Part shown: positions 1-23,363 of the stretch, piece by piece
Numbering within the stretch: position 1 is the stretch's first letter
How the letters are laid out: each line of letters opens with the position of its first letter
NCBI GenBank assembly: GCA_001766815.1
Contig: LYOS01000003.1
Span: forward strand, 85,254-117,253
DNA length: 32,000 bases
Reading direction: 5' to 3'
Origin: Candidatus Syntropharchaeum caldarium
GTDB lineage: Archaea; Halobacteriota; Syntropharchaeia; Syntropharchaeales; Syntropharchaeaceae
Position numbers and translations under genes: made by a program
The notes under the pieces: model-generated
Told to the model about the DNA's origin: nothing
What the model saw: the letters and a program-made list of their open reading frames with translations, nothing else
Databases searched by the model: none

Positions 1-1251
1 ACAGCGGGATTGATCATCCATGTGCTCTAAAACTTCGAGCGCATCCTCAAACTTACCCGCTTTAGCGAGCTTGGAAGCAATTCTATGCAAAGCCCATGAA
101 CGCCTCGTCTCATCATCTATACATTCTGCAAACCCAAGAGCTTCTTCAAGTATATCTCTGTATGGTTCACCGGCACCGGTAAGTTCCAGTGCAATCCCAC
201 ATAACGCCGATGAGCGCTGCGATCTATCACTTATACATCGTGCAACCTCGAGCGCTTCATCAAAAATCTCTTTAGATGGTTCACCTGCCCTGGCAAGCCC
301 TGATGCAGTATTACGTAATGCCCAGGAACGCCGAAGCTCATCCTTTATACTCCTTGTAGCCTCCAGTGCTTCTTCAAGTATATCTCTGTATGGTTTGCCT
401 GCCTCAGCAAGCCCTGATGCGATCACACGCAGGGGCAATGAGCGCAGATATTTGGTATTTATACTCCGTGCAACCTCGAGTGCCTCATCAAATTCTCCAG
501 CTTCAGCAAGCCCCACCACAACCTTGCGCAAGGCCCATGAAGAGTGGAAATCATCACATATACGTCCTGATATCTCAAGTGCCTCATCAAATTCTCCAGC
601 TTCAGCAAGCCCCACCACAACCTTGCGCAAGGCCCACGAACGCTGGTATCTATCTTCTATCTGCTCTGCAAACTCAAGTGCCTCATCAAGTACCTCTTTG
701 TACGGTTTCCCGGCTTCGGCAAGCCTCAGTGCGATCTCACGCAGTGCTTCCGCAACTCGGTGTCCATCACCTATACGCCGTGCAACCTCAAGCGCCTCAT
801 CAAATTCTCCAGCTTCAGCAAGCCCAGCTGCAATCTTACTCATAGCCTCCAGATGCTGATATCTATCCTTTATCCTCTCTGCAACATCGAGCACTTCTTC
901 AAGTACCTCTTTGTACGGTTTGCCGGCTTTGGCGAGCCCCACTGCAATCTTGAGCAAGGCTTCAAGACGCCCAAACTCATTGCTTATACTCCGTGAAATC
1001 TCAAGCGCCTCATCAAGTATCTCTCGATAGGGTTTCCCGGCTTCGGCAAGCCTCAGTGCGATCTCACGCAGTGCTTCCATTCGCTGATATTTATTTACTA
1101 TGCGCCCTGATATCTCAAGCGCCTCATCAAACTCTCCAGCTTCAGCGAGCCCCACTGCAATCTCACGCAGTGCTTCCATTCGCTGATATTTATCGGTTAT
1201 ACGATCTGCAACCCCCAGAGCTTCTTCAAGATAACGCCCCACAGCACCCAT
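1..1251 (-). CDS. alpha-helical tandem-repeat protein (TPR/HEAT-like); N-terminus in window, C-terminus runs off the left edge
   Basis: My own minus-strand translation from ATG 1251..1249 stays open for all 417 codons down to position 1. It reads MGAVGRYLEEALGVADRITDKYQRMEALREIAVGLAEAGEFDEALEISGRIVNKYQRMEALREIALRLAEAGKPYREILDEALE... There are at least 11 tandem units of 33 or 38 aa with the core LAEAG(EF or KPYxEIL)DEALE. It is missing from the ORF track because no stop lies in the window. The plus-strand ORFs at 20..1319 are Ser/Ala/Pro-rich antisense shadows. Confidence 0.75.
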   Translation of the reverse strand, partial: MGAVGRYLEEALGVADRITDKYQRMEALREIAVGLAEAGEFDEALEISGRIVNKYQRMEALREIALRLAEAGKPYREILDEALEISRSISNEFGRLEALLKIAVGLAKAGKPYKEVLEEVLDVAERIKDRYQHLEAMSKIAAGLAEAGEFDEALEVARRIGDGHRVAEALREIALRLAEAGKPYKEVLDEALEFAEQIEDRYQRSWALRKVVVGLAEAGEFDEALEISGRICDDFHSSWALRKVVVGLAEAGEFDEALEVARSINTKYLRSLPLRVIASGLAEAGKPYRDILEEALEATRSIKDELRRSWALRNTASGLARAGEPSKEIFDEALEVARCISDRSQRSSALCGIALELTGAGEPYRDILEEALGFAECIDDETRRSWALHRIASKLAKAGKFEDALEVLEHMDDQSRC

Positions 1252-1457
1252 ATTCTTCTCAAGCAACCACACCACCCACTTTTTTGGTGATCTTACTTCA
1301 CCCTGTTAATACGTACTGATTATTCAAGCTCAATTGATAAATACCTTCGCCTTCAACCGATCAACGATATTTGTTGCATCCCTGCTCGTTCTAATTTTGA
1401 AAATATCCCCTAAAGCATCACTTCACCATCAGGGTAAGAACACAACTATACCCACCG

Positions 1458-1463: not shown

Positions 1464-1600
1464 TGATCTTCTACTCTTCCCTCAACCTGTCCCCCACAGA
1501 TCGGATCTGATTCGCTGATTCATTCAGTCTTCCGCGCATCTTCATCAGTTCTCTACCAGCATCCCTCTCCTCTGATCCCTCTATCCGCGCAAGTTTTGTG
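1463..1600 (-). repeat. 138-bp direct repeat copy A: orphan copy of the last 43 codons, stop and 8 nt of 3' flank of the 343-aa gene at 5056..6087
   Basis: Base-by-base comparison with 5048..5185 gives 137/138 identical, with the single mismatch at 1576 (t) versus 5161 (c). The reading frame is closed upstream by a stop at 1612..1614, so this copy is a non-functional gene fragment. Confidence 0.9.
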
Positions 1601-1730
1601 TCCCCATCATTTTATCCCAGATCGCCCTTCCGCTTCCCCAATAAAGTTCTGTAGCCATATCCTCACAACAACCAAGCTCATCATACCTCGCTGGATCTCC
1701 TACATGATTCAGAAGCGGTATCATATCACC

Positions 1731-4502
1731 TCATGTGGTTGTTCCAGGCATCAGGTGCTCTTCGGTCAGGAAAGTCCAGTAGCCATACCCTGGCGTCATA
1801 TCTATGAACTCAGAGATTCCTGGAGCGGGTGGATAGCTGTACACGAGCCTGAGATCTGTAGATGCCATTCCCTGGTACTCGACCGTTGATAGCATCGTTG
1901 CCTTATCACTGAGTCCTGTGGCAAGGACAAACTCCTCAACAGTCCAGCCCTCATCTGTGATATGACCGATCATGTTCCAGCCAACATACAGCTCCTGTAC
2001 CGGTGGCACCAGGGTCGTTGTATCATAGTGGACACAGATCATCTCAGGTGCGACCTTATAGACCCAGTACCCTTGACATGGATGAACGATTATAGCACCG
2101 TCATTGATCCAGGAATCTGTTGCTGCATCGTAGTAATGTGCGCTCTCACCCATTGAAAGGTTGAAGAGTGTTACGGCATCGACCGGTATGATCGGTTTTG
2201 GAACAGATACGAGGTTCCACCCTGCCTCAAGGAACAGACAGAATCCGTCATCCACCGTCACATTCCTTGTTGTTGTGTTGGTTAAGCCGTCATTGTCTGT
2301 TATGGTTAAGGTTATATTATAGGTGCCTGGTTCTGTGTATGCATGGGTTATTACAGGATCTGAAACGGTTGTGGTGTTGCCATCATCGAAGTTCCAGGTG
2401 TAGTTGGTGATAGAGCCGTCATCGCTGGAGAGGGAGGCGTTGAAGGTGATGACTTGGTTAACGGGAGGGTTTTGTGGGGTGAAGGTGAAGGAGGTGGTTG
2501 GGGGTTGGTTTGCTGCAACATCCACCCAGATCGGATTCGTGTAACAGCGATATTGTTCGTTGTTTGTTGTGTTTGAATATGCCTCAACACGATAATAACA
2601 TGATTCATTTGGTGAGATTATCAATTCGTGTTCATCGCAAAGAGTGTTTTTTCCAATAGAAGATGGCTGGATCACTGTGAAATTGCTTTCCTCAGTTCCA
2701 TTGATCACTCCCTTCTTAACGATGATCTTGTTTATATAACCAAATTCTGGAGTGCTTATCCACTGGATATTTAATGTAAGATTGTCTCCAGAAATTGCAT
2801 CGCCGATAATTGCTGTATGCCCAGATTTGTTGGTAATATTAAATACTACCAACGGACCATCAGTCATTACAGAATGACCATGTCTAAGAGCATTGAGGAT
2901 TCCATCATCACTGAAATTCTCTGTGTACACATAGGTCCTTACTTTTCCAAAAGCATTGTTTGATTCTTTAGTGAATGGAGGGATTGTATAAGATATTGAA
3001 TGGCTAAAGTCGCCATGAGCATCGGTGCCACCAATAATAAACACATCTTTACGTCCATTCAATAACAAACGTTTCCATTGTTCTAACCCGTCGTCTCGTT
3101 CAGTCATCCAGTTTGTATCTTGAGTGCATTTTCCATTCCACACTTGAAGACCATTATACCCCATCAAATCATAGTCTTCGGTTATCCAAGGCACTCTATC
3201 AAAAGGCAAGGCTTCTACTCCACGATGTCCTTCTGGATGTGCCGCATAACTAACGCCACCCTGAGAATTAACTATATCAATAACATCTTCGAGATTCCAT
3301 GTTGGGTCATCACACCATGGATCATCATGACCTCCGGGGATGAAGTCCAATCCAGTTCCTCCAACATTGGTGAAATTTTCCATTCCAAAGACCAAAAAAT
3401 GAACAACACCTCTTGGGACTAAAGGATTAGGAGGGTTCTCATGTCCATAACAAGAGACTTCCTCTCCAAGAATAAGTTTGTACGAACCAGTGGTGTAAGA
3501 GCTGACCTCACTTTTAAGGGCATTCCACTTGTGGTTAGGGTCTGCTGTTCTACTATCTTTTATATCAAAAGAATGATCTGTAATCGCGTTCCAGTCAAGT
3601 CCAATAGCTTTTCCAGCTTCTACTGTAGCTTCTACTGGAAAGCCAAGTTCCACTAAATTATCGGTATAACTACTGTGATAATGCGTGTCGCCGGAATACC
3701 AGTTATTAAGGTGTGGCAGAGTTTCATTTGCAATGGTAACATTGAAATGGCTGTGTGCATCAGAATCCCAATCCCAGAATCCACCAATATCCCTAATTAC
3801 TACATGGAAACTAACATCCCCACTTAACCCATATTCAGATGGATCCAAATAAGTAATGCCATACCAATCGCCAGGATAATATAGATTATAAAATGATTCA
3901 TTTACTGTAATGCCATTCCATTTTGTTACAGTTTCTAAAAGAATATCATCTGCTTCATTATTATCTTTATCATAATCTTCATCTAAGTATATTTCTACAT
4001 TTCCCAAATCATAATCACCACAATACCAAATATCGGCATCTTTAATCATAACAAGAATGGGTATCCTGCCGGATTGAACTCTCCATGGTGCATCAGCAAA
4101 CACCTCTTTACACAAAGTATTAATCATTTTTACAGTTACTGTATTATTTGATGGTGAGACTTCATAATTGGAGCCTTCGTTGTCGAGTTCCCATATCGTT
4201 CTATGTCCATGTAACCGAACATATAGTTTATATTCCCCAAGAGGAACCGAAACATTCATATCTTTTTGTTCAGTGATATCAAATTCGCTGAAAACCTCTT
4301 CCTTTGTACCCTCTGTTCTAACCACTGTAACATGCATTGGAGAAAATTCTGGGTAGGTATATGAGGTATATGGAATTGAATCAGGAGAAACATCCAATAA
4401 TAGGGTTCCGGAATCTTCAGCATAAACGACGGATATCGTACAGAACATTCCGATTATGCAAACTATTCCGGCTAAACACAGTCTAAGGCAATTTTTCGTC
4501 AT
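1731..4502 (-). CDS. secreted PHP-domain metallohydrolase-like protein with a PKD domain and a C-terminal GW..GYW repeat region
   Basis: 923-aa ORF. The N-terminus is a hydrophobic signal/anchor (MTKNCLRLCLAGIVCIIGMFCTISVVYAEDSG). PHP-type metal motifs are present: GDTHYHSSYTDN (about 3657..3692), ITDHSF, AAHPEG and GGTDAHGDF. A classic PKD domain (TFTPQNPPVNQVITFNASLSSDDGSITNYTWNFDDGNTTTVSDPVITHAYTEPGTYNITLTITDNDG) lies at about 2265..2515. The start overlaps the upstream gene stop by 4 nt. Confidence 0.85.
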   Translation of the reverse strand: MTKNCLRLCLAGIVCIIGMFCTISVVYAEDSGTLLLDVSPDSIPYTSYTYPEFSPMHVTVVRTEGTKEEVFSEFDITEQKDMNVSVPLGEYKLYVRLHGHRTIWELDNEGSNYEVSPSNNTVTVKMINTLCKEVFADAPWRVQSGRIPILVMIKDADIWYCGDYDLGNVEIYLDEDYDKDNNEADDILLETVTKWNGITVNESFYNLYYPGDWYGITYLDPSEYGLSGDVSFHVVIRDIGGFWDWDSDAHSHFNVTIANETLPHLNNWYSGDTHYHSSYTDNLVELGFPVEATVEAGKAIGLDWNAITDHSFDIKDSRTADPNHKWNALKSEVSSYTTGSYKLILGEEVSCYGHENPPNPLVPRGVVHFLVFGMENFTNVGGTGLDFIPGGHDDPWCDDPTWNLEDVIDIVNSQGGVSYAAHPEGHRGVEALPFDRVPWITEDYDLMGYNGLQVWNGKCTQDTNWMTERDDGLEQWKRLLLNGRKDVFIIGGTDAHGDFSHSISYTIPPFTKESNNAFGKVRTYVYTENFSDDGILNALRHGHSVMTDGPLVVFNITNKSGHTAIIGDAISGDNLTLNIQWISTPEFGYINKIIVKKGVINGTEESNFTVIQPSSIGKNTLCDEHELIISPNESCYYRVEAYSNTTNNEQYRCYTNPIWVDVAANQPPTTSFTFTPQNPPVNQVITFNASLSSDDGSITNYTWNFDDGNTTTVSDPVITHAYTEPGTYNITLTITDNDGLTNTTTRNVTVDDGFCLFLEAGWNLVSVPKPIIPVDAVTLFNLSMGESAHYYDAATDSWINDGAIIVHPCQGYWVYKVAPEMICVHYDTTTLVPPVQELYVGWNMIGHITDEGWTVEEFVLATGLSDKATMLSTVEYQGMASTDLRLVYSYPPAPGISEFIDMTPGYGYWTFLTEEHLMPGTTT

Positions 4503-4918
4503 TTTATCAACACCTTCTTACCTATCACAGTTATTAAAAGACCAATCCCAATACCGATCATTATGCCGAAAAAGGTTGGCATTCCAACAAACCATATAAT
4601 AAAGAGAAGAAGTGACAATATACCTGCTAACGCAGTGGAAATTAAATGGGTAAGATATGCCGGTAAACAGATAACTTTTAAACTTTCTGGAAAAACAAAT
4701 TCATGCCCTGCAAATCCTTCTGCAAAGATCCCCCATGCGTAAAGAATTCCTGTGACAAGACCCCATACTCCGCCAACAATCGCCCCTCTTTTTGTCCACT
4801 TGCTCGTTTCAGTTTGCGATGGCTTATTTATCAAAAATATCAATAACAGACCAGGTAATCTTCTACCCAATATCATCCCCAGAACCACCTCTCCACCACG
4901 ACTATAAGAATGCTCCAT
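4499..4918 (-). CDS. small integral membrane protein (3-4 predicted TM helices), function unknown
   Basis: 139-aa ORF with several hydrophobic stretches (LPGLLLIFLI, AIVGGVWGLVTGILYAWGIF, ALAGILSLLLFIIWFVGMPTFFGIMIGIGIGLLITVIG). It has a 4-nt ATGA overlap with the 923-aa gene, and a TATA-like box lies 20-35 nt upstream. Confidence 0.7.
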   Translation of the reverse strand: MEHSYSRGGEVVLGMILGRRLPGLLLIFLINKPSQTETSKWTKRGAIVGGVWGLVTGILYAWGIFAEGFAGHEFVFPESLKVICLPAYLTHLISTALAGILSLLLFIIWFVGMPTFFGIMIGIGIGLLITVIGKKVLIK

Positions 4919-4972: not shown

Positions 4973-5047
4973 AGCGTTATGTTATATCGCCATACCCACC
5001 ATGAACCATCTTCAAAATCGCTATCAGATCACGCATCTCGCACGTAG

Positions 5048-5185
5048 ATGATCTTCTACTCTTCCCTCAACCTGTCCCCCACAGATCGGATCTGATTCGC
5101 TGATTCATTCAGTCTTCCGCGCATCTTCATCAGTTCTCTACCAGCATCCCTCTCCTCTGACCCCTCTATCCGCGCAAGTTTTGTG
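5048..5185 (-). repeat. 138-bp direct repeat copy B: the functional 3' end of the 343-aa gene plus 8 nt of flank
   Basis: 137/138 identical to 1463..1600. It encodes the C-terminal ...TKLARIEGSEERDAGRELMKMRGRLNESANQIRSVGDRLREE* of the 5056..6087 product. Confidence 0.9.
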
Positions 5186-6087
5186 GCAATAGTGTTTATC
5201 GATCGTGAAGTATCTTCGATAGTGGATGAGACCTCTTTAAGCTCAGAAGCGAGTGCCGCCATGTCAACTCCGCCTTCCTTACCCTTCAATGCATAGACAA
5301 AGCCACCACCGACTATGATACCAAGTACGATCGCAAGAATAACATAAAGGAGGACCGGGGGCGGAGCTATATCCTCAGATAGTGCTTTGTAATCCTCTGA
5401 GAGAATTAATGCCCATCCTGGATGCCCTTCTTCATAGAGACGTCTTATATTCGATTCAAGCTCACTCTCGCCGATTGTTTCACTCGCACTTGCAAGATTT
5501 GCTTCCATCTCCTCTCCTGCATCATCCAGAGCCTCACTTGTTGCGTAAAATTCCATGGACGGTACAAGCTTCTGCACGACTCGTTTTAGCGTACTGCCAT
5601 CTGTTGTGGTTCCGATCGTCAACGTCACATACACTCTCTTTTTCCCAATTCCTGTGAGATCCACGGACTCAAAATTAGGCTCTCTGACCTGTATCACGGC
5701 TTCGGGAACAGTTCCAGCGAGAATTATCGTTGGAGGGGTGAGTGCATGCTCCGCTTCTCCCTTCCATGTAATGACTGTGGCAGATGTATAGATATCCTGG
5801 CCATACTGCCATTCTGGATCTTCAAGGTTCGTCCGAAGCTCCAGGACGTACTCATCAGATATCGGATTATCCGTCTTCTCGATTGCGATGTGAAACTCAA
5901 GGTCATGCCCTTCAAGCTGTTCGCTATCTATGAAATCGGAGTACGGAATCTTACTACCTGTGTGCATATCGATGACGTATGACTTTGCCTCATCAATCCT
6001 CAGGATATCCTGGGCTGCAACACTACCACTCAGGATGTAAAAGAGTACAAACGCTATCAGAAGCGTCTTCTTCATTTTTTTCTTCAT
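5056..6087 (-). CDS. type-I membrane protein: signal peptide, ~220-aa ectodomain, single TM, ~75-aa cytoplasmic coiled-coil tail (last gene of the tubulin-like operon)
   Basis: 343-aa ORF. The signal peptide is MKKKMKKTLLIAFVLFYILSGSVAAQD. The TM segment is PPPVLLYVILAIVLGIIVGGGFVYAL, near aa 245-268. The C-terminus is charged and helical. It has a 4-nt ATGA overlap with the 863-aa gene. Confidence 0.8.
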   Translation of the reverse strand: MKKKMKKTLLIAFVLFYILSGSVAAQDILRIDEAKSYVIDMHTGSKIPYSDFIDSEQLEGHDLEFHIAIEKTDNPISDEYVLELRTNLEDPEWQYGQDIYTSATVITWKGEAEHALTPPTIILAGTVPEAVIQVREPNFESVDLTGIGKKRVYVTLTIGTTTDGSTLKRVVQKLVPSMEFYATSEALDDAGEEMEANLASASETIGESELESNIRRLYEEGHPGWALILSEDYKALSEDIAPPPVLLYVILAIVLGIIVGGGFVYALKGKEGGVDMAALASELKEVSSTIEDTSRSINTIATKLARIEGSEERDAGRELMKMRGRLNESANQIRSVGDRLREE

Positions 6088-8675
6088 TCTGCACGCTCCA
6101 TTATATCTCTTAGATCTTTTAACAGGAGCAGGATCTTTGCAAGAGGTGATCCAAGCTCCTTCATGAGCCTTATTGCATCCTTTGTGCCCATGTTGATCTT
6201 CTCAATCTCACTGTTTGCCTGAGCAATGTGGCGTATCACACTTGAAGTTGTCTCTTCTGAGGGGATTCTTCCAAGAAAGTCCTGTACGTTGTGTATCGCA
6301 GTCTGAACGTCGTCATTGAAGCTTTTGGAAAGGTTATCGATGACATCGATCAGGATCTCAACGTCTCTGTAGGTTTCATTCAGCATTCTGAGTAGTCTGT
6401 CACCATCTTCAAAGGCTTTTGCACCTTTTAACTTCTCTATCGTATCTTTAAAGTTTTTATCGATTGAGAGGTAGGTTTTGTACCCTTCCTCGAGCCCCTC
6501 CTGAAGTTTATCGATCTTAAGGCTGGCATTCTCAAGATCCTGTACCAGCATCGTTATATTTGCAATCGAGAAGCTTTCGGGTATGCGCATATCTTTTATT
6601 GCTTCTGCCATCTCGATACTTGAGATGAGGCGATCAAAGGAGTTTAAAGCTGATGCAAGCAGGATTGGTACCGTGGTCCAGATCGCTCTCTCTTCGATGA
6701 TCTCGTAATCTTTCCAGAAAGCTGTCACATTCTCGCGGTTTAAGTCGTCTTCGCCTGGTTTGTAGTCAATCCCTGTGATCACCGAGAACGGCTTTGGTGT
6801 CCCATAGAAGAGCGAATGGTGGCGCTGCAATTTGGAGAGATCGCTCGTGTCATACGCCTTCCCAAGCCACTCAAGCTCCCTTAGCCTTGGTGGAAGATCG
6901 GGGGCAGGTTGCCATGGCTGAAGACCGATCATGAGCGTGTAAATCGCGAAACTGTGAAGGCGTGCGGGTGTGTTGAGCTTCAGGATGTCAGCATCCTTTG
7001 CAAAGCGTTCTGTAACCATACTCCTGAAAGCAGTGTCACCGAGTCTCGCATCATCAAAGTTATCCATCCTGCTGCTCAGGACCGCTACAAAGTGCCCGAA
7101 CTTCTCCTCCTCATTTATCACATTGCCCTGTGCATCCAGTGCGAGGAAGCCGTACCTGTTCAGCGTCTCGAAGTACTTTGCAGTTGATGCGTTCTCGACC
7201 GATGGACGATAGTTCACCATCGGGTTGAAAATGATATCACCCTGATTGATCGGTGCGTGTGTCCACCTGAAGTATTCCTCCTCTCGCCCAAGTTTTCGCA
7301 TAATCTCCAGGAATGAGAGGTTCTTCAGGTCTTCACGATCTTTCTTTAGCTGCTTCACCTCATCCTCTGTAAGCTCGATCTGGTGATAACTTCTTGTGTT
7401 GAACGGCGAGGTAATCTCCCTCAGCGTCCTGTTCTTGATCGCCTTCAACTTCTCGATATCCTGCTCCACCATTCTGCGAGTCTCTTCGAGGTCGTTTGTG
7501 CGGATCTCAAGGTTAAAATCATCCTCCTTAAGCTCAGATAGCTTTCTCCTGGCACGATCAAGCCTGGACTTTGCATCTGATAGTGCTTTTCGATTAATAT
7601 ATGAAAATACTCCCTTTTTAGATTCGTAGGCGTCTATCTCTCGCTGGATCTCACTTATCTTCGCCTCAAGTCCCTGGAGTTCGATGCGCTTGGAATCGGC
7701 CTTATCACGGATCTCACCAAGCCTCGCGTCAATCTCGACAAGCTTCTCACGCATTCTTGGAATCTCATCCTCGATCTCATAGTAAAGCTGGAGTTTATCT
7801 GCCGGAAAGACGCACTCATAGTATCCAAGCGTTGAGAATCGACTCTCATACTCTCTTGCACGGTTCTGGAGATCGTTTAGATCGAGCCATTTGCCCTTTG
7901 CCTCGATGCCACCGCCTGGGACAAATCCGAGATCGAGCAGAAACCGTGAAATCGCCCTCTCAAGCTCGTCATCTCTATTCTGACCCTGTAGATCCCTTCC
8001 AAGCAGGAATACGATCTTGAATGGGTTTGAGTAGTTTTTATCCTCGATTATCATGTCCTGCTGGTGTGACATCAGAAAATGAAGCTCCTTTAAGGTTGCA
8101 TATCCATTTCCCATCGGTAAACCTGATTCGTTGCTTGATGGCAGGATCGTTATCCCGAAGATCAGAGGACCGGATCCAAACTGCTTTGTTATCCAGTCTC
8201 GTATATCGATCGCGATGTCAAGAAGCATGCTCGAACCTGTGCCACCACCGAGCGCAGATACCATCAGGATCAGAAAGTCCTTGCCACCCGTACGGTTACG
8301 AAGGTCTGAAGTGGCAGAGCCTATTGCATTCATGATGCGCTCCCTGTGGACGTTGTACATTGCTCTCCCGTATATCCTGTGCTGACCACATCCCGCCCCT
8401 GCTGCCATCAGGTATGGATCTGGGAGCCATCGATTCACGTTCTTCATAACGACCGTATCGGGCCTTGAGAGCACGATCTTTCTACGCTCCTCTATCTCTG
8501 TGCATGCATTTGCAGACGCCTGATCTGTATCAATGATCAGAAACTCCTCATTTCTTGGTATTCTATCACTTTTCAGGATGCTCAGTATGTTATTTACGAT
8601 CTTACTACCCTGCCCCCCTATTCCGATGATGAGTCTGTTTGTCGTGTCTTCTTTCTCAGCCACGTCCATACTCAC
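6084..8675 (-). CDS. large tubulin/FtsZ/CetZ-superfamily GTPase-like protein with a long coiled-coil/helical C-terminal extension
   Basis: 863-aa ORF with these tubulin/FtsZ-type motifs: LIIGIGGQGSKIVNNI (8601..8624, T1-like), AAGAGCGQHRIYGR (T3-like), ALGGGTGSS (8229..8249, tubulin/FtsZ signature GGGTG[ST]), GITILPSSNESG..GYATLKEL (T5-like, close to CetZ GILPGSDEGG.YTLNAA) and KWLDLNDLQN (T7-like). From about aa 300-420 the sequence is heptad-rich (EKLVEIDARLGEIRDKADSKRIELQGLEAKISEIQREIDAY...). The remaining ~440 aa are helical with no recognised motif. Confidence 0.75.
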   Translation of the reverse strand: MSMDVAEKEDTTNRLIIGIGGQGSKIVNNILSILKSDRIPRNEEFLIIDTDQASANACTEIEERRKIVLSRPDTVVMKNVNRWLPDPYLMAAGAGCGQHRIYGRAMYNVHRERIMNAIGSATSDLRNRTGGKDFLILMVSALGGGTGSSMLLDIAIDIRDWITKQFGSGPLIFGITILPSSNESGLPMGNGYATLKELHFLMSHQQDMIIEDKNYSNPFKIVFLLGRDLQGQNRDDELERAISRFLLDLGFVPGGGIEAKGKWLDLNDLQNRAREYESRFSTLGYYECVFPADKLQLYYEIEDEIPRMREKLVEIDARLGEIRDKADSKRIELQGLEAKISEIQREIDAYESKKGVFSYINRKALSDAKSRLDRARRKLSELKEDDFNLEIRTNDLEETRRMVEQDIEKLKAIKNRTLREITSPFNTRSYHQIELTEDEVKQLKKDREDLKNLSFLEIMRKLGREEEYFRWTHAPINQGDIIFNPMVNYRPSVENASTAKYFETLNRYGFLALDAQGNVINEEEKFGHFVAVLSSRMDNFDDARLGDTAFRSMVTERFAKDADILKLNTPARLHSFAIYTLMIGLQPWQPAPDLPPRLRELEWLGKAYDTSDLSKLQRHHSLFYGTPKPFSVITGIDYKPGEDDLNRENVTAFWKDYEIIEERAIWTTVPILLASALNSFDRLISSIEMAEAIKDMRIPESFSIANITMLVQDLENASLKIDKLQEGLEEGYKTYLSIDKNFKDTIEKLKGAKAFEDGDRLLRMLNETYRDVEILIDVIDNLSKSFNDDVQTAIHNVQDFLGRIPSEETTSSVIRHIAQANSEIEKINMGTKDAIRLMKELGSPLAKILLLLKDLRDIMERAE

Positions 8676-9109
8676 TTGCCCCCACGTAATTCATAGGATC
8701 TTGTTCGCTCTCGCATCTCCTCCAGTTCATCGGCAAAGTAGGCAAGCTCTCGCTCACCCTCTCTTATCTCACTCTCGACGCCGCCAACAACGCTATCCAT
8801 CGTTCGTGCCTGGGCAAGAACCCCTTTTGAACTCTTCTCGCCCCTGAACCAGACCAGTATACCGATTAAACCAAGCAGAACCCCGATTATGATTGTGCCA
8901 TAGACAAGCGCAAAGATTGCAGCTTCAGAGAGAGATGTGAAGTAGCGATCGCTGTATTCATTCAATACAAATGCAATCGAGAGAAAGATCACCCCGATAA
9001 TCGGAAACAGAAGCAGCATCTTCTCAACTTCCAGTCTCAAAAGCATGATGACAATCTCAAGAACGAATACGACAATTAGTATCAGTGTGATAATGCTGAG
9101 TGCATCCAT
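8672..9109 (-). CDS. small polytopic membrane protein with a short charged C-terminal helix (tubulin-like operon)
   Basis: 145-aa ORF with about 4 hydrophobic segments and the C-terminus ESEIREGERELAYFADELEEMRERTRSYELRGGK. A GAGGAG RBS (9116..9121) lies 6 nt upstream of the ATG. The stop overlaps the 863-aa gene start by 4 nt. Confidence 0.7.
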   Translation of the reverse strand: MDALSIITLILIVVFVLEIVIMLLRLEVEKMLLLFPIIGVIFLSIAFVLNEYSDRYFTSLSEAAIFALVYGTIIIGVLLGLIGILVWFRGEKSSKGVLAQARTMDSVVGGVESEIREGERELAYFADELEEMRERTRSYELRGGK

Positions 9110-9149
9110 GAATATCTCCTCAAGTTAGATACACGTTAATCGTTTAAAT

Positions 9150-10379
9150 TTATTTGCTGATAACATCCAGCCTGTCCCGGTCATATTCCAACCTGGAGTT
9201 TGCATCTTCGATGAGTGCTTCATACCTCAGCATAAACTCACCGAGCTGCTCGATCGTTTGTAGATCAAGAACATCCTGCATCCGATCGGCTCCCCAGTAA
9301 TCGACAGGATACTCTTCAGATGATGGTTCCTTATCTCTTATCTTTGCTTCAAGATCGAATATATTCTTATAAATCGCTTCAAGGGTCTCGATGGCTGTAA
9401 CTCGCAACTCTGCTTCGCATTCTTTCAATATATTCTGCTGTGATGGGGAGTCTGTATGCTCGATCCTCGCCTCTATCGCACGAACTTTCTCACCATCTGC
9501 GACCTTTTTAACGACACCGACCATCTCCAGCAGCATCTCCTTGTACTGATTGAACCCATCAGCGGTCTCATCGATGATGCGTTCCATCACATTCCTGAGG
9601 ATGCCCGCGGCAGCATCATAGTTTCCCCGCTCCATATTCTGCTCTGCAATCTTGATATCAGTCCTGATCCTTGAACGATCCCTTATCGTCTTTGAGCCTG
9701 ATTCCACTGCTTTCACCTCACGAAGCGAAGATTCGATCGCGTCATCAAAGATCGAGGTCAGATCACCCAAAAAGTGGGCGAGGTTCAGGATATCGATCTC
9801 AATATCTTCAAGGATCATCGCTTCAATACGCCTCATCTGATCGCCTATCCCTCTGTAACCCGCTGCTTCAAGCTCTCTCAGACGATCAAGATACCTTTCT
9901 CCCTGCTCAATGACCTTTCCATAGATCGTTGGTTCGTATCGATCTTTGATGCTCTCAATCTTCAGTTTGATCTCTTCGATATCAGAAGATCTCGCCTTTT
10001 TAAGCTTCGCTTTATCAAAATGGACTTCACCGTTTACAAGACACCCGATTGAGGATAGATCTGCCTTTACGGCGCTAAGTTCATCCCTGAACCCCCTTGT
10101 GACAATGTGATACTGGTTTTCAAAGTTAGAAAGCTCCCGCAAAAGTTCGATCAGGTTGTGAGCGATGCGCTTAAGATCCCGCTCAAGCACCCGGGTTTTT
10201 ATACTTTTTCCGCGCACTTCGGTCAGGTAGATTATGAAAAACGAGACGATTACCATCACAGGGATTAGAAGCAGGATTAACGTTATCGCAAGATCCGATC
10301 CCGTACCAAATAGCAGGAGAATTCCAATGAGGATTAAAATACCGAATAATATCGATCCGATTATCCCATATCGCCTCAT
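9150..10379 (-). CDS. membrane-anchored (2 N-terminal TM) all-helical/coiled-coil protein (tubulin-like operon)
   Basis: 409-aa ORF. The N-terminus MRRYGIIGSILFGILILIGILLLFGTGSDLAITLILLLIPVMVIVSFFIIYL gives two TM helices. The remaining ~340 aa are charged and helical, with no enzymatic motif. It has an ATGA overlap with the upstream 299-aa gene. Confidence 0.8.
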   Translation of the reverse strand: MRRYGIIGSILFGILILIGILLLFGTGSDLAITLILLLIPVMVIVSFFIIYLTEVRGKSIKTRVLERDLKRIAHNLIELLRELSNFENQYHIVTRGFRDELSAVKADLSSIGCLVNGEVHFDKAKLKKARSSDIEEIKLKIESIKDRYEPTIYGKVIEQGERYLDRLRELEAAGYRGIGDQMRRIEAMILEDIEIDILNLAHFLGDLTSIFDDAIESSLREVKAVESGSKTIRDRSRIRTDIKIAEQNMERGNYDAAAGILRNVMERIIDETADGFNQYKEMLLEMVGVVKKVADGEKVRAIEARIEHTDSPSQQNILKECEAELRVTAIETLEAIYKNIFDLEAKIRDKEPSSEEYPVDYWGADRMQDVLDLQTIEQLGEFMLRYEALIEDANSRLEYDRDRLDVISK

Positions 10380-11275
10380 ACTCGCCCACCAATCTGCTTA
10401 TGTGCTTTGAATTCCTCAAATGAGTACGTAAAGATCACTGTTATCGATACGATATTGCGTCTCGTCTTCCTGATATCGATCGTTGATCTCGTGGTATATC
10501 TCTGCATGAGATCCTCCACCAGCGCCTGATCGATCGTATCAACTCTTTCTTCCGGGACATTTATCAATGCAGCGCCCTTCACCGATCCAATCGGGTCATC
10601 AAATACGGTTAGCTTCTCAAGTGCAACTCTGAGCATCGTCCTTATGTCGATCTCATGGTGTGGGATTATCGGGATAATATAACCAAGTAACCCCTTTGTA
10701 AGCTCTGATGAACGCGCAACCGCAGCATAGCCTGCTTCCCCCTCAAATGAAAGGCTTTTGAGCACGTCATCGATCGATTGCGCCTCGAATATATCCTTCA
10801 GGATCGATGCCACATACTCGTTATACTGATCATAGTAGTTCTCAAAATAGGGGAGATGAGATAGTTTCTCGTTGTCAACGATTATCACACCATTTGCCCT
10901 CGTTTTAAGTTCATTGAGAGCTTTGAATGCCAGATTGATCGAATCACGATCTGTTCTTCGTGTTGCTGGAATTATACCAACGACATATCGATGAAAACCT
11001 GCATCTTTCGCTATTTTCGCAAGATCCAGTGTCACAGTTCCTCCAATTTCCCCTCCAAGTCCTGCAAAAAGGAAGACGTTTTTCACGCCATTCTTGAGAT
11101 GTTTTTTGAAAAGTTCTTCACTTTCAGGCGATTTGTGGCTGATTGTAACGCTATCTGCGATTTTTTTCATCCCTGGATGGTAACGCCATAGTGCATCAAG
11201 CAGGCGGCCTCCAGCAGTCCCGATGCCAGCGATGAGATTGGGTCTTGCCACACATATCTCTTTACCGTATTCCAT
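10376..11275 (-). CDS. compact FtsZ/CetZ-like protein with a degenerate nucleotide-binding signature (first gene of the tubulin-like operon)
   Basis: 299-aa ORF with these FtsZ-type motifs: NLIAGIGTAGGRLLD (G-box 1), FLFAGLGGEIGGTVTLDLAKIAK (11036..11062 encodes GLGGEIGGT where FtsZ has GGGTGTG), YVVGIIPA....NGVIIVDNEKL (FtsZ has VVTKPF...DTLIVIPNDKL) and VKGAALINVPEE (FtsZ has AKGVLINITGG). It has no C-terminal tail. Confidence 0.7.
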   Translation of the reverse strand: MEYGKEICVARPNLIAGIGTAGGRLLDALWRYHPGMKKIADSVTISHKSPESEELFKKHLKNGVKNVFLFAGLGGEIGGTVTLDLAKIAKDAGFHRYVVGIIPATRRTDRDSINLAFKALNELKTRANGVIIVDNEKLSHLPYFENYYDQYNEYVASILKDIFEAQSIDDVLKSLSFEGEAGYAAVARSSELTKGLLGYIIPIIPHHEIDIRTMLRVALEKLTVFDDPIGSVKGAALINVPEERVDTIDQALVEDLMQRYTTRSTIDIRKTRRNIVSITVIFTYSFEEFKAHKQIGGRV

Positions 11276-23194: not shown

Positions 23195-23204
23195 GCGCTC
23201 CGCT

Positions 23205-23279
23205 GCTCCGGTAGTGTAGCTCGGCCAATCATTCCGGCCTTTCGAGCCGAAGACCCGGGTTCAAATCCCGGCCGGAGCA
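23205..23279 (+). tRNA. tRNA-Glu (anticodon UUC)
   Basis: Manual cloverleaf, 75 nt. The acceptor GCTCCGG pairs with CCGGAGC. The anticodon arm is CCGGC-CTTTCGA-GCCGA, and the loop CT-TTC-GA gives UUC. The T arm is CCGGG-TTCAAAT-CCCGG, and the discriminator is A. No CCA is encoded. Confidence 0.9.
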
Positions 23280-23288
23280 TGGAAATAC

Positions 23289-23363
23289 GCTCCGTTAGTG
23301 TAGCTCGGCCAATCATGCAGGGCTCTCAATCCTGCGACAGGGGTTCAAATCCCCTACGGAGCA
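23289..23363 (+). tRNA. tRNA-Glu (anticodon CUC)
   Basis: Manual cloverleaf, 75 nt. The acceptor GCTCCGT pairs with ACGGAGC. The D arm is identical to the upstream tRNA. The anticodon arm is CAGGG-CTCTCAA-TCCTG, and the loop CT-CTC-AA gives CUC. The T arm is AGGGG-TTCAAAT-CCCCT. No CCA is encoded. Confidence 0.9.

Follow-up and report, generated by a model that had tools for sequence, protein, structure and literature searches.

The window analyzed here is a stretch of 32,000 nucleotides (nt) from contig LYOS01000003.1 of Candidatus Syntropharchaeum caldarium. At positions 5056-11275 it carries five closely coupled genes, all on the minus strand and transcribed in the order T-M2-M3-Z-S. T and Z code for proteins of the tubulin/FtsZ superfamily, and M2, M3 and S code for membrane proteins. 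On balance, the five genes probably constitute a membrane-anchored filament system of the tubulin superfamily, built around an FtsZl1 protein (Z), composed of two joined modules and coupled to the cell surface. The evidence comes from the assignment of Z to the FtsZl1 family, from the reduced, CetZ-like sequence of T, from the topology of the three membrane proteins and from the conservation of the gene order.

Arrangement of the five genes

The five genes and the motif found in the gap between M2 and M3 are listed below.

10376-11275, minus strand: T, a small degenerate CetZ-like protein of the tubulin superfamily (299 residues from ATG 11275; 291 residues from GTG 11251)
9150-10379, minus strand: M2, a membrane protein of 409 residues with two N-terminal transmembrane helices and a helical domain of about 350 residues, predicted to be cytoplasmic
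9116-9121, minus strand: GAGGAG, a Shine-Dalgarno-like motif within the sole intergenic gap (9110-9149)
8672-9109, minus strand: M3, a small membrane protein of 145 residues with three transmembrane helices and a charged C-terminal heptad helix (residues 111-140)
6084-8675, minus strand: Z, a protein of the FtsZl1 family (Pfam Tubulin_2; 863 residues from GTG 8675 or 861 residues from ATG 8669)
5056-6087, minus strand: S, a type-I membrane protein of 343 residues with a signal peptide, an ectodomain, a transmembrane helix and a heptad tail, predicted to be cytoplasmic

M2 starts on the stop codon of T and S starts on the stop codon of Z, in both cases through an ATGA overlap (10376-10379 and 6084-6087, respectively). 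The M3/Z junction at 8672-8675 reads GTGA. In every database gene call Z begins two codons later, at ATG 8669, giving TGAgtATG, and the coupling is tight with either start. The only junction without overlap is the gap of 40 nt between M2 and M3.

A first-pass annotation of this DNA, made from the sequence alone, had listed five minus-strand open reading frames (ORFs) of 299, 409, 145, 863 and 343 residues, joined by three ATGA overlaps and a 40-nt gap with a GAGGAG motif. The ORFs were recovered at the coordinates that it gave, the motif was located in the gap and all the peptide motifs that it quoted were found in the translations. Two of the overlaps are as it described them, but the one at 8672-8675 is not ATGA.

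T probably starts at GTG 11251 and not at ATG 11275. The 291-residue form is the one annotated by NCBI in the Syntrophoarchaeum relative described below, one homologue cluster begins at the same position, and the nucleotide identity with this relative starts 7 nt upstream of GTG 11251. The TATA-like AGATATAG, which sits 30-37 nt upstream of GTG 11251, suggests a separate promoter for T and, with it, a very short leader. Only 36 nt separate T from NMD3, so that read-through from topA-NMD3 is also possible.

All five genes are real and not chance ORFs, since about 20 independent contigs carry orthologues in unchanged order and the differences from the close relative are mainly synonymous. Rfam and tRNA scans gave no match within the five-gene cluster. 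A scan for sigma-70 promoters and intrinsic terminators stayed at chance level; these models do not apply to an archaeon.

Z belongs to the FtsZl1 family

Z matched PF13809 (Tubulin_2) over residues 15-299 with 95.9 bits (E = 3.8e-27), the cut-off of this model being 27 bits, and nearly all of its 79 homologues carry the PF13809 annotation. The FtsZ-like family that Makarova and Koonin described in 2010 under the name FtsZl1 (Biol Direct 5:33; PMC2875224) has been equated with PF13809 (PMC9871819). Z is a member of this family and shows its diagnostic architecture, in which an N-terminal FtsZ-like GTPase domain with GGGTGS is followed by an extended coiled coil and, at the C-terminus, by an alpha-helical domain.

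The GGGTGSS signature of the FtsZ-like nucleotide-binding domain is present in Z and invariant across the homologues. Among 26 homologues, down to 28% identity, invariant positions included G16, G18, G19 and G21 of loop T1, GGGTGS 141-146 of loop T4, and D263 and D266 within WLDLNDL. The two aspartates form a D-x-x-D pair, located just ahead of the short helix that comes after the core helix, with a spacing that we take to be that of the catalytic pair D209 and D212 in the T7/H8 region of Escherichia coli FtsZ. A sequence search of the PDB with Z alone gave nothing informative.

An AlphaFold2 model of Z was computed from an alignment of the 26 homologues, with a predicted local distance difference test (pLDDT) score of 87.5 and a predicted template modelling (pTM) score of 0.80. 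The model is divided as follows.

7800-8639, minus strand: Z residues 11-290, Rossmann-like GTPase domain with T1 (GIGGQG), T4 (GGGTGSS) and a T7-like WLDLNDL (D263, D266), followed by strand S7
7410-7802, minus strand: Z residues 290-420, antiparallel coiled-coil hairpin inserted in the tubulin C-terminal domain (AlphaFold2 helices 290-350 and 360-420)
6705-7388, minus strand: Z residues 428-655, putative helical sub-domain together with the rest of the tubulin/FtsZ C-terminal domain (strands and helices), as judged from alignment span and template modelling (TM) scores
6090-6692, minus strand: Z residues 660-860, four long helices in the AlphaFold2 model, corresponding to the FtsZl1 C-terminal alpha-helical domain and fitting the family description in PMC2875224

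When the model was compared with the PDB by Foldseek, the best match was CetZ1 (4b46; E = 1.6e-10; TM-score 0.73, normalised to the target), followed by CetZ2 (TM-score also 0.73), Methanosaeta CetZ, FtsZ, TubZ and tubulins. The targets are about 300-360 residues long, and their alignments extended over about 590-645 columns of the query. Because these alignments span about 610 query columns at these TM-scores, the model points to the presence of both complete tubulin domains in Z, with the hairpin and the helical sub-domain inserted after strand S7. The heptad score of the hairpin was higher than that of more than 99.9% of shuffles, and weak matches to SMC/coiled-coil profiles were found at residues 300-450.

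Z would be expected to bind GTP and to polymerise, because its two-domain core is complete, its nucleotide loops are intact and an acidic pair of the T7 type is present. A polymerising GTPase activated by assembly is thus plausible.

The Z orthologues of the anaerobic methanotrophic archaea ANME-1 are about 35-45 residues longer at the C-terminus than Syntrophoarchaeum Z (alignment A4, columns about 965-1000; for example, locus L001). The extension consists of a variable acidic linker ending with a conserved ELPDLSL peptide, which is missing from the Z of the window.

T is a reduced CetZ-like protein

T matched PF00091 with 36.5 bits, marginally over the cut-off of 33, and over residues 53-140 only. 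A profile search of 1.84 billion representative proteins identified only 65 relatives of T at E<=1e-3. The nearer ones are archaeal proteins of 345-465 residues carrying the motifs GxGQAG, GGFGKNP, GLGGGTGxG, NAW, VDN and IDxxD. When the profile of this wider family was searched against the PDB, CetZ1 and CetZ2 were the best matches (5.6e-30), with FtsZ at about 1e-19.

Unlike its nearer relatives, T lacks the whole T2-T3 segment, the phosphate-sensing region, in the alignment. Its T4 signature loop is the degenerate GLGGEIGGT, a deletion of three residues in this loop (GLGD---) was found in eight of the eight aligned ANME-1 orthologues, and its T7 region has shrunk to I-D-D. Even so, the protein has remained intact and conserved: 69 columns do not vary among 12 sequences. 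Since T2-T3 is missing and the T4 loop is degenerate, or deleted in the orthologues, T probably does not function as a GTPase. It is a reduced but maintained CetZ-like protein, probably with a non-catalytic function.

The top Foldseek matches of the T model were CetZ and FtsZ, with probability 1.0 and TM-scores of only 0.3-0.4; taken on their own, these matches give weak support. The first-pass annotation had placed both T and Z in the tubulin/FtsZ superfamily, and the Pfam scores above cut-off and the CetZ and FtsZ matches of both models agree with this placement. The hallmarks of the superfamily, which it had read in both proteins, are intact in Z but degenerate in T.

A recent origin of T as a paralogue of the Z GTPase domain was considered and rejected (hhalign probability of 26% over 74 columns). 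By sequence, the two proteins lie on separate branches and are only remotely related to each other.

The membrane partners M2, M3 and S

Hydropathy analysis assigned to M2 two N-terminal transmembrane segments followed by about 350 helical residues, to M3 three transmembrane segments and a charged tail, and to S a signal peptide, an ectodomain of about 210 residues, a transmembrane segment at about 243-266 and a tail of 75 residues. The helical parts of the three proteins are predicted to be cytoplasmic because of the positive-inside rule. By a crude heptad score, for which the coiled-coil hairpin of Z was the positive control, each protein has one segment scoring higher than more than 99.9% of shuffles (M2 61-95, M3 111-140, S 273-315), and in each case this segment comes directly after the last transmembrane helix. 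Transmembrane proteins with cytoplasmic helices had also been the description given to these partners in the first reading of the sequence.

None of the three had a match in Pfam or NCBIfam. Searches of the PDB with family profiles found no relative of S and, for M2, just designed-repeat and Cmr4 noise. Their positions are constant: M2 orthologues in ANME-1 (38-41% identity) always lie after T, M3 (45% identity to the ANME-1 orthologue) is always immediately upstream of Z, and S comes after Z wherever the sequence of the locus reaches far enough, also in Altiarchaeales, where its identity is 25%.

Conservation of the cluster and its two modules

A search with Z gave 38 genome loci, which were surveyed for synteny. 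About 20 of them, belonging to ANME-1 (Methanophagales), Methanospirareceae and Syntrophoarchaeum contigs, have the genes in the order T-M2-M3-Z-S; the identities to the proteins of the window are 37% (T), 38% (M2), 45% (M3), 65% (Z) and 49% (S). Proteins identical to those of the window are encoded on two independently assembled contigs (SRR3669912, SRR3679449), which share the upstream context of topoisomerase I and NMD3, followed by T-M2-M3-Z-S.

The nearest named genome is that of Candidatus Syntrophoarchaeum sp. 12019_3 (JAOQII010000001.1; loci L005/L050), which is 98.5% identical to window positions 5062-11258 in an ungapped nucleotide comparison. The shared block of 6197 nt contains 91 differences, 71 codons differing synonymously and 19 non-synonymously, a pattern indicating that all five genes are under purifying selection. 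The identity is confined to the five-gene block. The flanks are unrelated on both sides and each context is independently supported: sp. 12019_3 has divergent genes of 323 and 807 residues upstream and a TPR gene downstream, whereas the window has topA-NMD3 upstream. The block was translocated, duplicated or exchanged as one unit.

In most relatives with sequence in this region, including the 98.5%-identical Syntrophoarchaeum, a divergent gene pair is located upstream of T. It codes for a protein of about 325 residues (u325) and a protein of about 810 residues (u811), the latter with a signal peptide, immunoglobulin-like (Ig-like)/NEW3 repeats and a C-terminal transmembrane helix. The general scheme is thus [u811<-u325<-][->T->M2] + [M3->Z->S]. 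The possibility that S is a relative of the divergent 325-residue neighbour was rejected (hhalign probability of 0.6%).

The cluster consists of two joined modules, T-M2 and M3-Z-S, each of which is also found alone. M3-Z-S occurs by itself in about 7 ANME-1 loci, preceded by unrelated housekeeping genes, among them radical SAM, HMGL-like and RNase III-like ones, and T-M2 occurs without Z in one locus (L004). Relatives of T with canonical motifs, found in ANME-2c (L047/L048) and in locus L049, are flanked by this same divergent pair, which there codes for surface or membrane proteins of 322-330 and 657-684 residues. Locus L049 has two tubulin paralogues (453 and 451 residues), Ig-like surface proteins and an M2-like protein fused to extracellular prealbumin-like (CarboxypepD_reg) domains. 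These three loci represent a wider and previously undescribed neighbourhood of a CetZ-like protein with a surface protein.

In Altiarchaeales, just Z (34%) and S (25%) are recognisably conserved. In Altiarchaeales WOR_SM1_79 (L003, 1372-11728) the pair of FtsZl1 and S-like genes is preceded by genes for a protein of 213 residues with four transmembrane segments and for two soluble coiled-coil paralogues of 341 and 724 residues, about 50% identical to each other. A PF00091 tubulin of 461 residues (66 bits) is encoded close by in divergent orientation, so that the presence of a second tubulin paralogue beside FtsZl1 is not confined to Syntrophoarchaeia. The full system is limited to ANME-1 and Syntrophoarchaeum, with distant Z-S pairs in Altiarchaeales.

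The five-gene operon proposed by the first-pass annotation stands as far as the close coupling and the syntenic loci are concerned, and the neighbourhood comparison that it suggested found the five genes syntenic across a whole archaeal class. Its picture of a single unit has to be modified, as the cluster is made of two separable modules and is accompanied elsewhere by two further divergent genes.

This modular composition could mean that two independent systems, a CetZ-like surface module (T-M2, with u325/u811) and an FtsZl1 module (M3-Z-S), lie side by side with no interaction between them. The loci with one module only, the T-like genes that occur without FtsZl1 in ANME-2c and L049, and the 40-nt gap at 9110-9149, which is the sole non-overlapping junction of the window and appears to fall exactly on the module boundary, are in favor of this explanation. 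We nevertheless consider it rather unlikely. In about 20 loci, which come from two orders and encode proteins only 37-65% identical, the modules adjoin on one strand with their order unchanged, the 98.5%-identical segment spans both of them as a single block, and the Altiarchaeales FtsZl1 gene is likewise found beside a second tubulin paralogue.

A model for a membrane-tethered filament

For a joint FtsZl1 filament system, the reading that we favor, we propose the following mechanism. Z would polymerise head-to-tail in a GTP-dependent manner, its hydrolysis being stimulated by assembly. In the model, the hairpin and the C-terminal four-helix region of Z protrude from the core. The heptad helices of M3 and S probably dock there and, through helix-helix contacts, would keep the polymer at the membrane. 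The S ectodomain may tie the position of the filament to the cell surface, as Ig-like proteins may do in other genomes. T would act as a structural partner, an adaptor or a cap, and not as a polymerising GTPase, and M2, with its two transmembrane segments and its large cytoplasmic helical domain, would be the partner of T. The most likely role of such a system is the organisation of the membrane or envelope, for example in cell shape, in the placement of envelope or sheath or in local membrane remodelling; a primary cell-division machine is less likely. Membrane-associated, membrane-remodelling complexes were predicted for FtsZl1 independently (PMC2875224).

Several points weigh against this reading. 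Folds, motifs, topologies and synteny are established, but the literature searched contained no experiment on any FtsZl1 protein, and we infer polymerisation, GTPase activity, tethering and the physiological role. T-M2 and M3-Z-S are apart in some genomes, which weakens the case for functional coupling, and both divergent surface-protein genes are missing from the window. The AlphaFold2 model of T, computed from an alignment of 11 sequences, is poor (pLDDT 57) and usable for the N-terminal domain only. ANME-1 are sheathed rods (PMC11576556), and a link of the system to cell shape or sheath is attractive; it is drawn from lineage distribution only and is correlative.

A heterotypic machine made of two tubulins would be a further step. 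In it T, a nucleotide-free pseudo-tubulin that has kept a tubulin-like longitudinal surface, would cap, nucleate or template the Z polymer at a transmembrane complex formed by M2, M3 and S together with Ig-like surface proteins. We regard this as a speculative and doubtful extension.

Comparison with known systems

The likeness of the locus to FtsZl1 systems extends from the architecture of Z to its neighbors, which are lineage-specific transmembrane proteins as in many FtsZl1 operons. Neither the window, the five genes included, nor the ANME-1 loci contained a vWA protein, diverged P-loop GTPase, protein kinase or OmpA protein, in agreement with the first-pass annotation, which had noted the absence of vWA, OmpA-type and extra GTPase neighbours. 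Such genes are frequent but not universal in FtsZl1 operons, whose other genes are often lineage-specific transmembrane proteins (PMC2875224), and for this reason their absence is no bar to membership of the family. The locus differs from known FtsZl1 systems in the partners of Z, which here comprise a degenerate CetZ-like protein together with three specific membrane proteins. It also departs from the description of 2010, in which T6-H7 and the tubulin-type C-terminal domain were not identifiable from FtsZl1 sequence (PMC2875224), whereas the AlphaFold2 model and Foldseek indicate T6-H7 and a C-terminal domain in Z, where the coiled coil forms an insertion and a D-x-x-D is conserved.

CetZ proteins, the tubulin-like proteins of archaeal cell shape (PDB 4b46, 4b45 and 3zid), are the nearest to the wider T family by profile and the first match of both the T and the Z models, and the shape or envelope role proposed here resembles theirs. 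T differs from CetZ in being about 100 residues shorter, in lacking T2-T3 and in its degenerate or deleted T4 loop. CetZ function requires GTPase activity. CetZ genes have not been reported alongside these membrane partners.

The proposed system also recalls FtsZ with FtsA, ZipA or SepF, where proteins that attach to a peripheral part of the subunit fasten a cytoplasmic tubulin-like polymer to the membrane. The acidic linker and ELPDLSL of ANME-1 Z recall the C-terminal tether-binding peptide of FtsZ, but the Z of the window is without a C-terminal peptide. In addition, Z and T both fail the equivalog model of canonical FtsZ (TIGR00065; 10.7 bits and 30 bits, respectively, for a cut-off of 295.2), and the putative tethers are unrelated integral membrane proteins, one of them with a large ectodomain.

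This comparison bears on the possibility that the cluster is an accessory dedicated to FtsZ-based division, for example in positioning septa or sheath segments, instead of serving envelope or shape in general. Division is indeed a process in which tubulin-superfamily proteins act, ANME-1 and their relatives grow as sheathed, segmented rods, and membrane tethers are the kind of partner that FtsZ has. However, neither T nor Z is a canonical FtsZ, no SepF or other divisome gene is present in the cluster, and FtsZl1 has been argued to co-exist with conventional FtsZ and to be an unlikely candidate for a direct role in division (PMC2875224). We find such a division accessory improbable.

Surroundings of the cluster

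The rest of the window is made of chromosomal housekeeping genes, including those for ribosomal proteins L10, L11 and L1, TFIIB, TBP, the thermosome and PolB. Two adjacent tRNA-Glu genes (anticodons UUC and CUC) are located at 23204-23363 on the plus strand, between the ribosomal L10 region and the TBP gene. At the left end, a gene for a TPR-like repeat protein (1-1320, minus strand), with units such as ALREIAxGLAEAGEFDEALE, runs out of the window; its DNA shows tandem periodicities of 99 nt and 213 nt.

The last 46 or so codons of S, with the stop codon and about 11 further bases, occur as a direct repeat at 5046-5185 and 1466-1611 (minus strand). The 3.45 kb between the two copies contain a membrane ORF of 139 residues (4499-4918) and a secreted PKD-domain protein of 923 residues (1731-4502), both absent from related loci. 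The duplicated end of S resembles a scar of insertion or recombination. As expected from the repeat at this place, an independent assembly was broken inside S. The genes of 139 and 923 residues were examined as possible operon members. We rejected them because neither occurs in L005 or in any ANME-1 locus and because both lie within the segment flanked by the duplicated 3' end of S.

Searches directed at defence and viral functions gave the following results. With PADLOC-DB 2.0 nothing significant was found for the five proteins and two extra neighbours; the only hit was CARF_HEPN (E = 0.0023), with no passing stretch, and the empty scan leaves a defence function unsupported. No relatives were found when IMG/VR viral contigs were scanned with the Z family alignment, and Foldseek against BFVD returned only two weak tubulin-like matches. 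No helix-turn-helix or other DNA-binding gene of the kind expected for a TubZRC system is present in the cluster; no specific search was aimed at centromere-like repeats.

A mobile cassette for conflict or defence, or a DNA-segregation system like TubZ, for which the sharply bounded 98.5%-identical block in two chromosomal contexts, the duplicated S 3' end around the inserted segment and the presence of TubZ among the structural matches of Z could speak, is highly improbable in view of the match of none of the seven proteins to PADLOC, the lack of relatives on IMG/VR contigs, the lack of any DNA-binding adaptor, integrase or transposase in the block, the membrane and surface nature of the partners, the chromosomal housekeeping context and the class-wide synteny, which is vertical in pattern.

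Implications

The literature searched contained no paper on this gene set or on a degenerate CetZ-like partner, and neither a paper nor a library named a characterised system to which the cluster would belong, as had been anticipated when it was first noticed. FtsZl1 had at that time been put forward merely as the closest concept. Z proved to be a member of the family, and transmembrane partners of FtsZl1 were already noted in 2010; for these two reasons the novelty is smaller than was claimed.

Within the tubulin/FtsZ superfamily, no branch is more divergent than FtsZl1, and the literature searched gave for it only the sequence-based prediction of 2010. The confident model of Z suggests that FtsZl1 has preserved the tubulin fold in full, together with a catalytic pair of the T7 type, which could not be established by the sequence analysis of that time. 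With these features in the model, GTPase activity coupled to polymerisation becomes a testable expectation, and the locus supplies a compact, conserved set of candidate membrane tethers. The near-term impact is limited by the fact that the hosts are not genetically tractable.

The pairing with a degenerate CetZ-like T raises the question of the uses that prokaryotes make of non-catalytic tubulin paralogues. If the machine made of two tubulins were real, it would be a cytoskeleton mechanically wired across the membrane to the sheath or surface layer, and the T/Z pair would parallel the catalytic and non-catalytic pairing of alpha- and beta-tubulin or a nucleation of the gamma-tubulin type. The hosts are uncultured, sheathed syntrophic oxidisers of methane and other alkanes, and the system may bear on their unusual envelopes.

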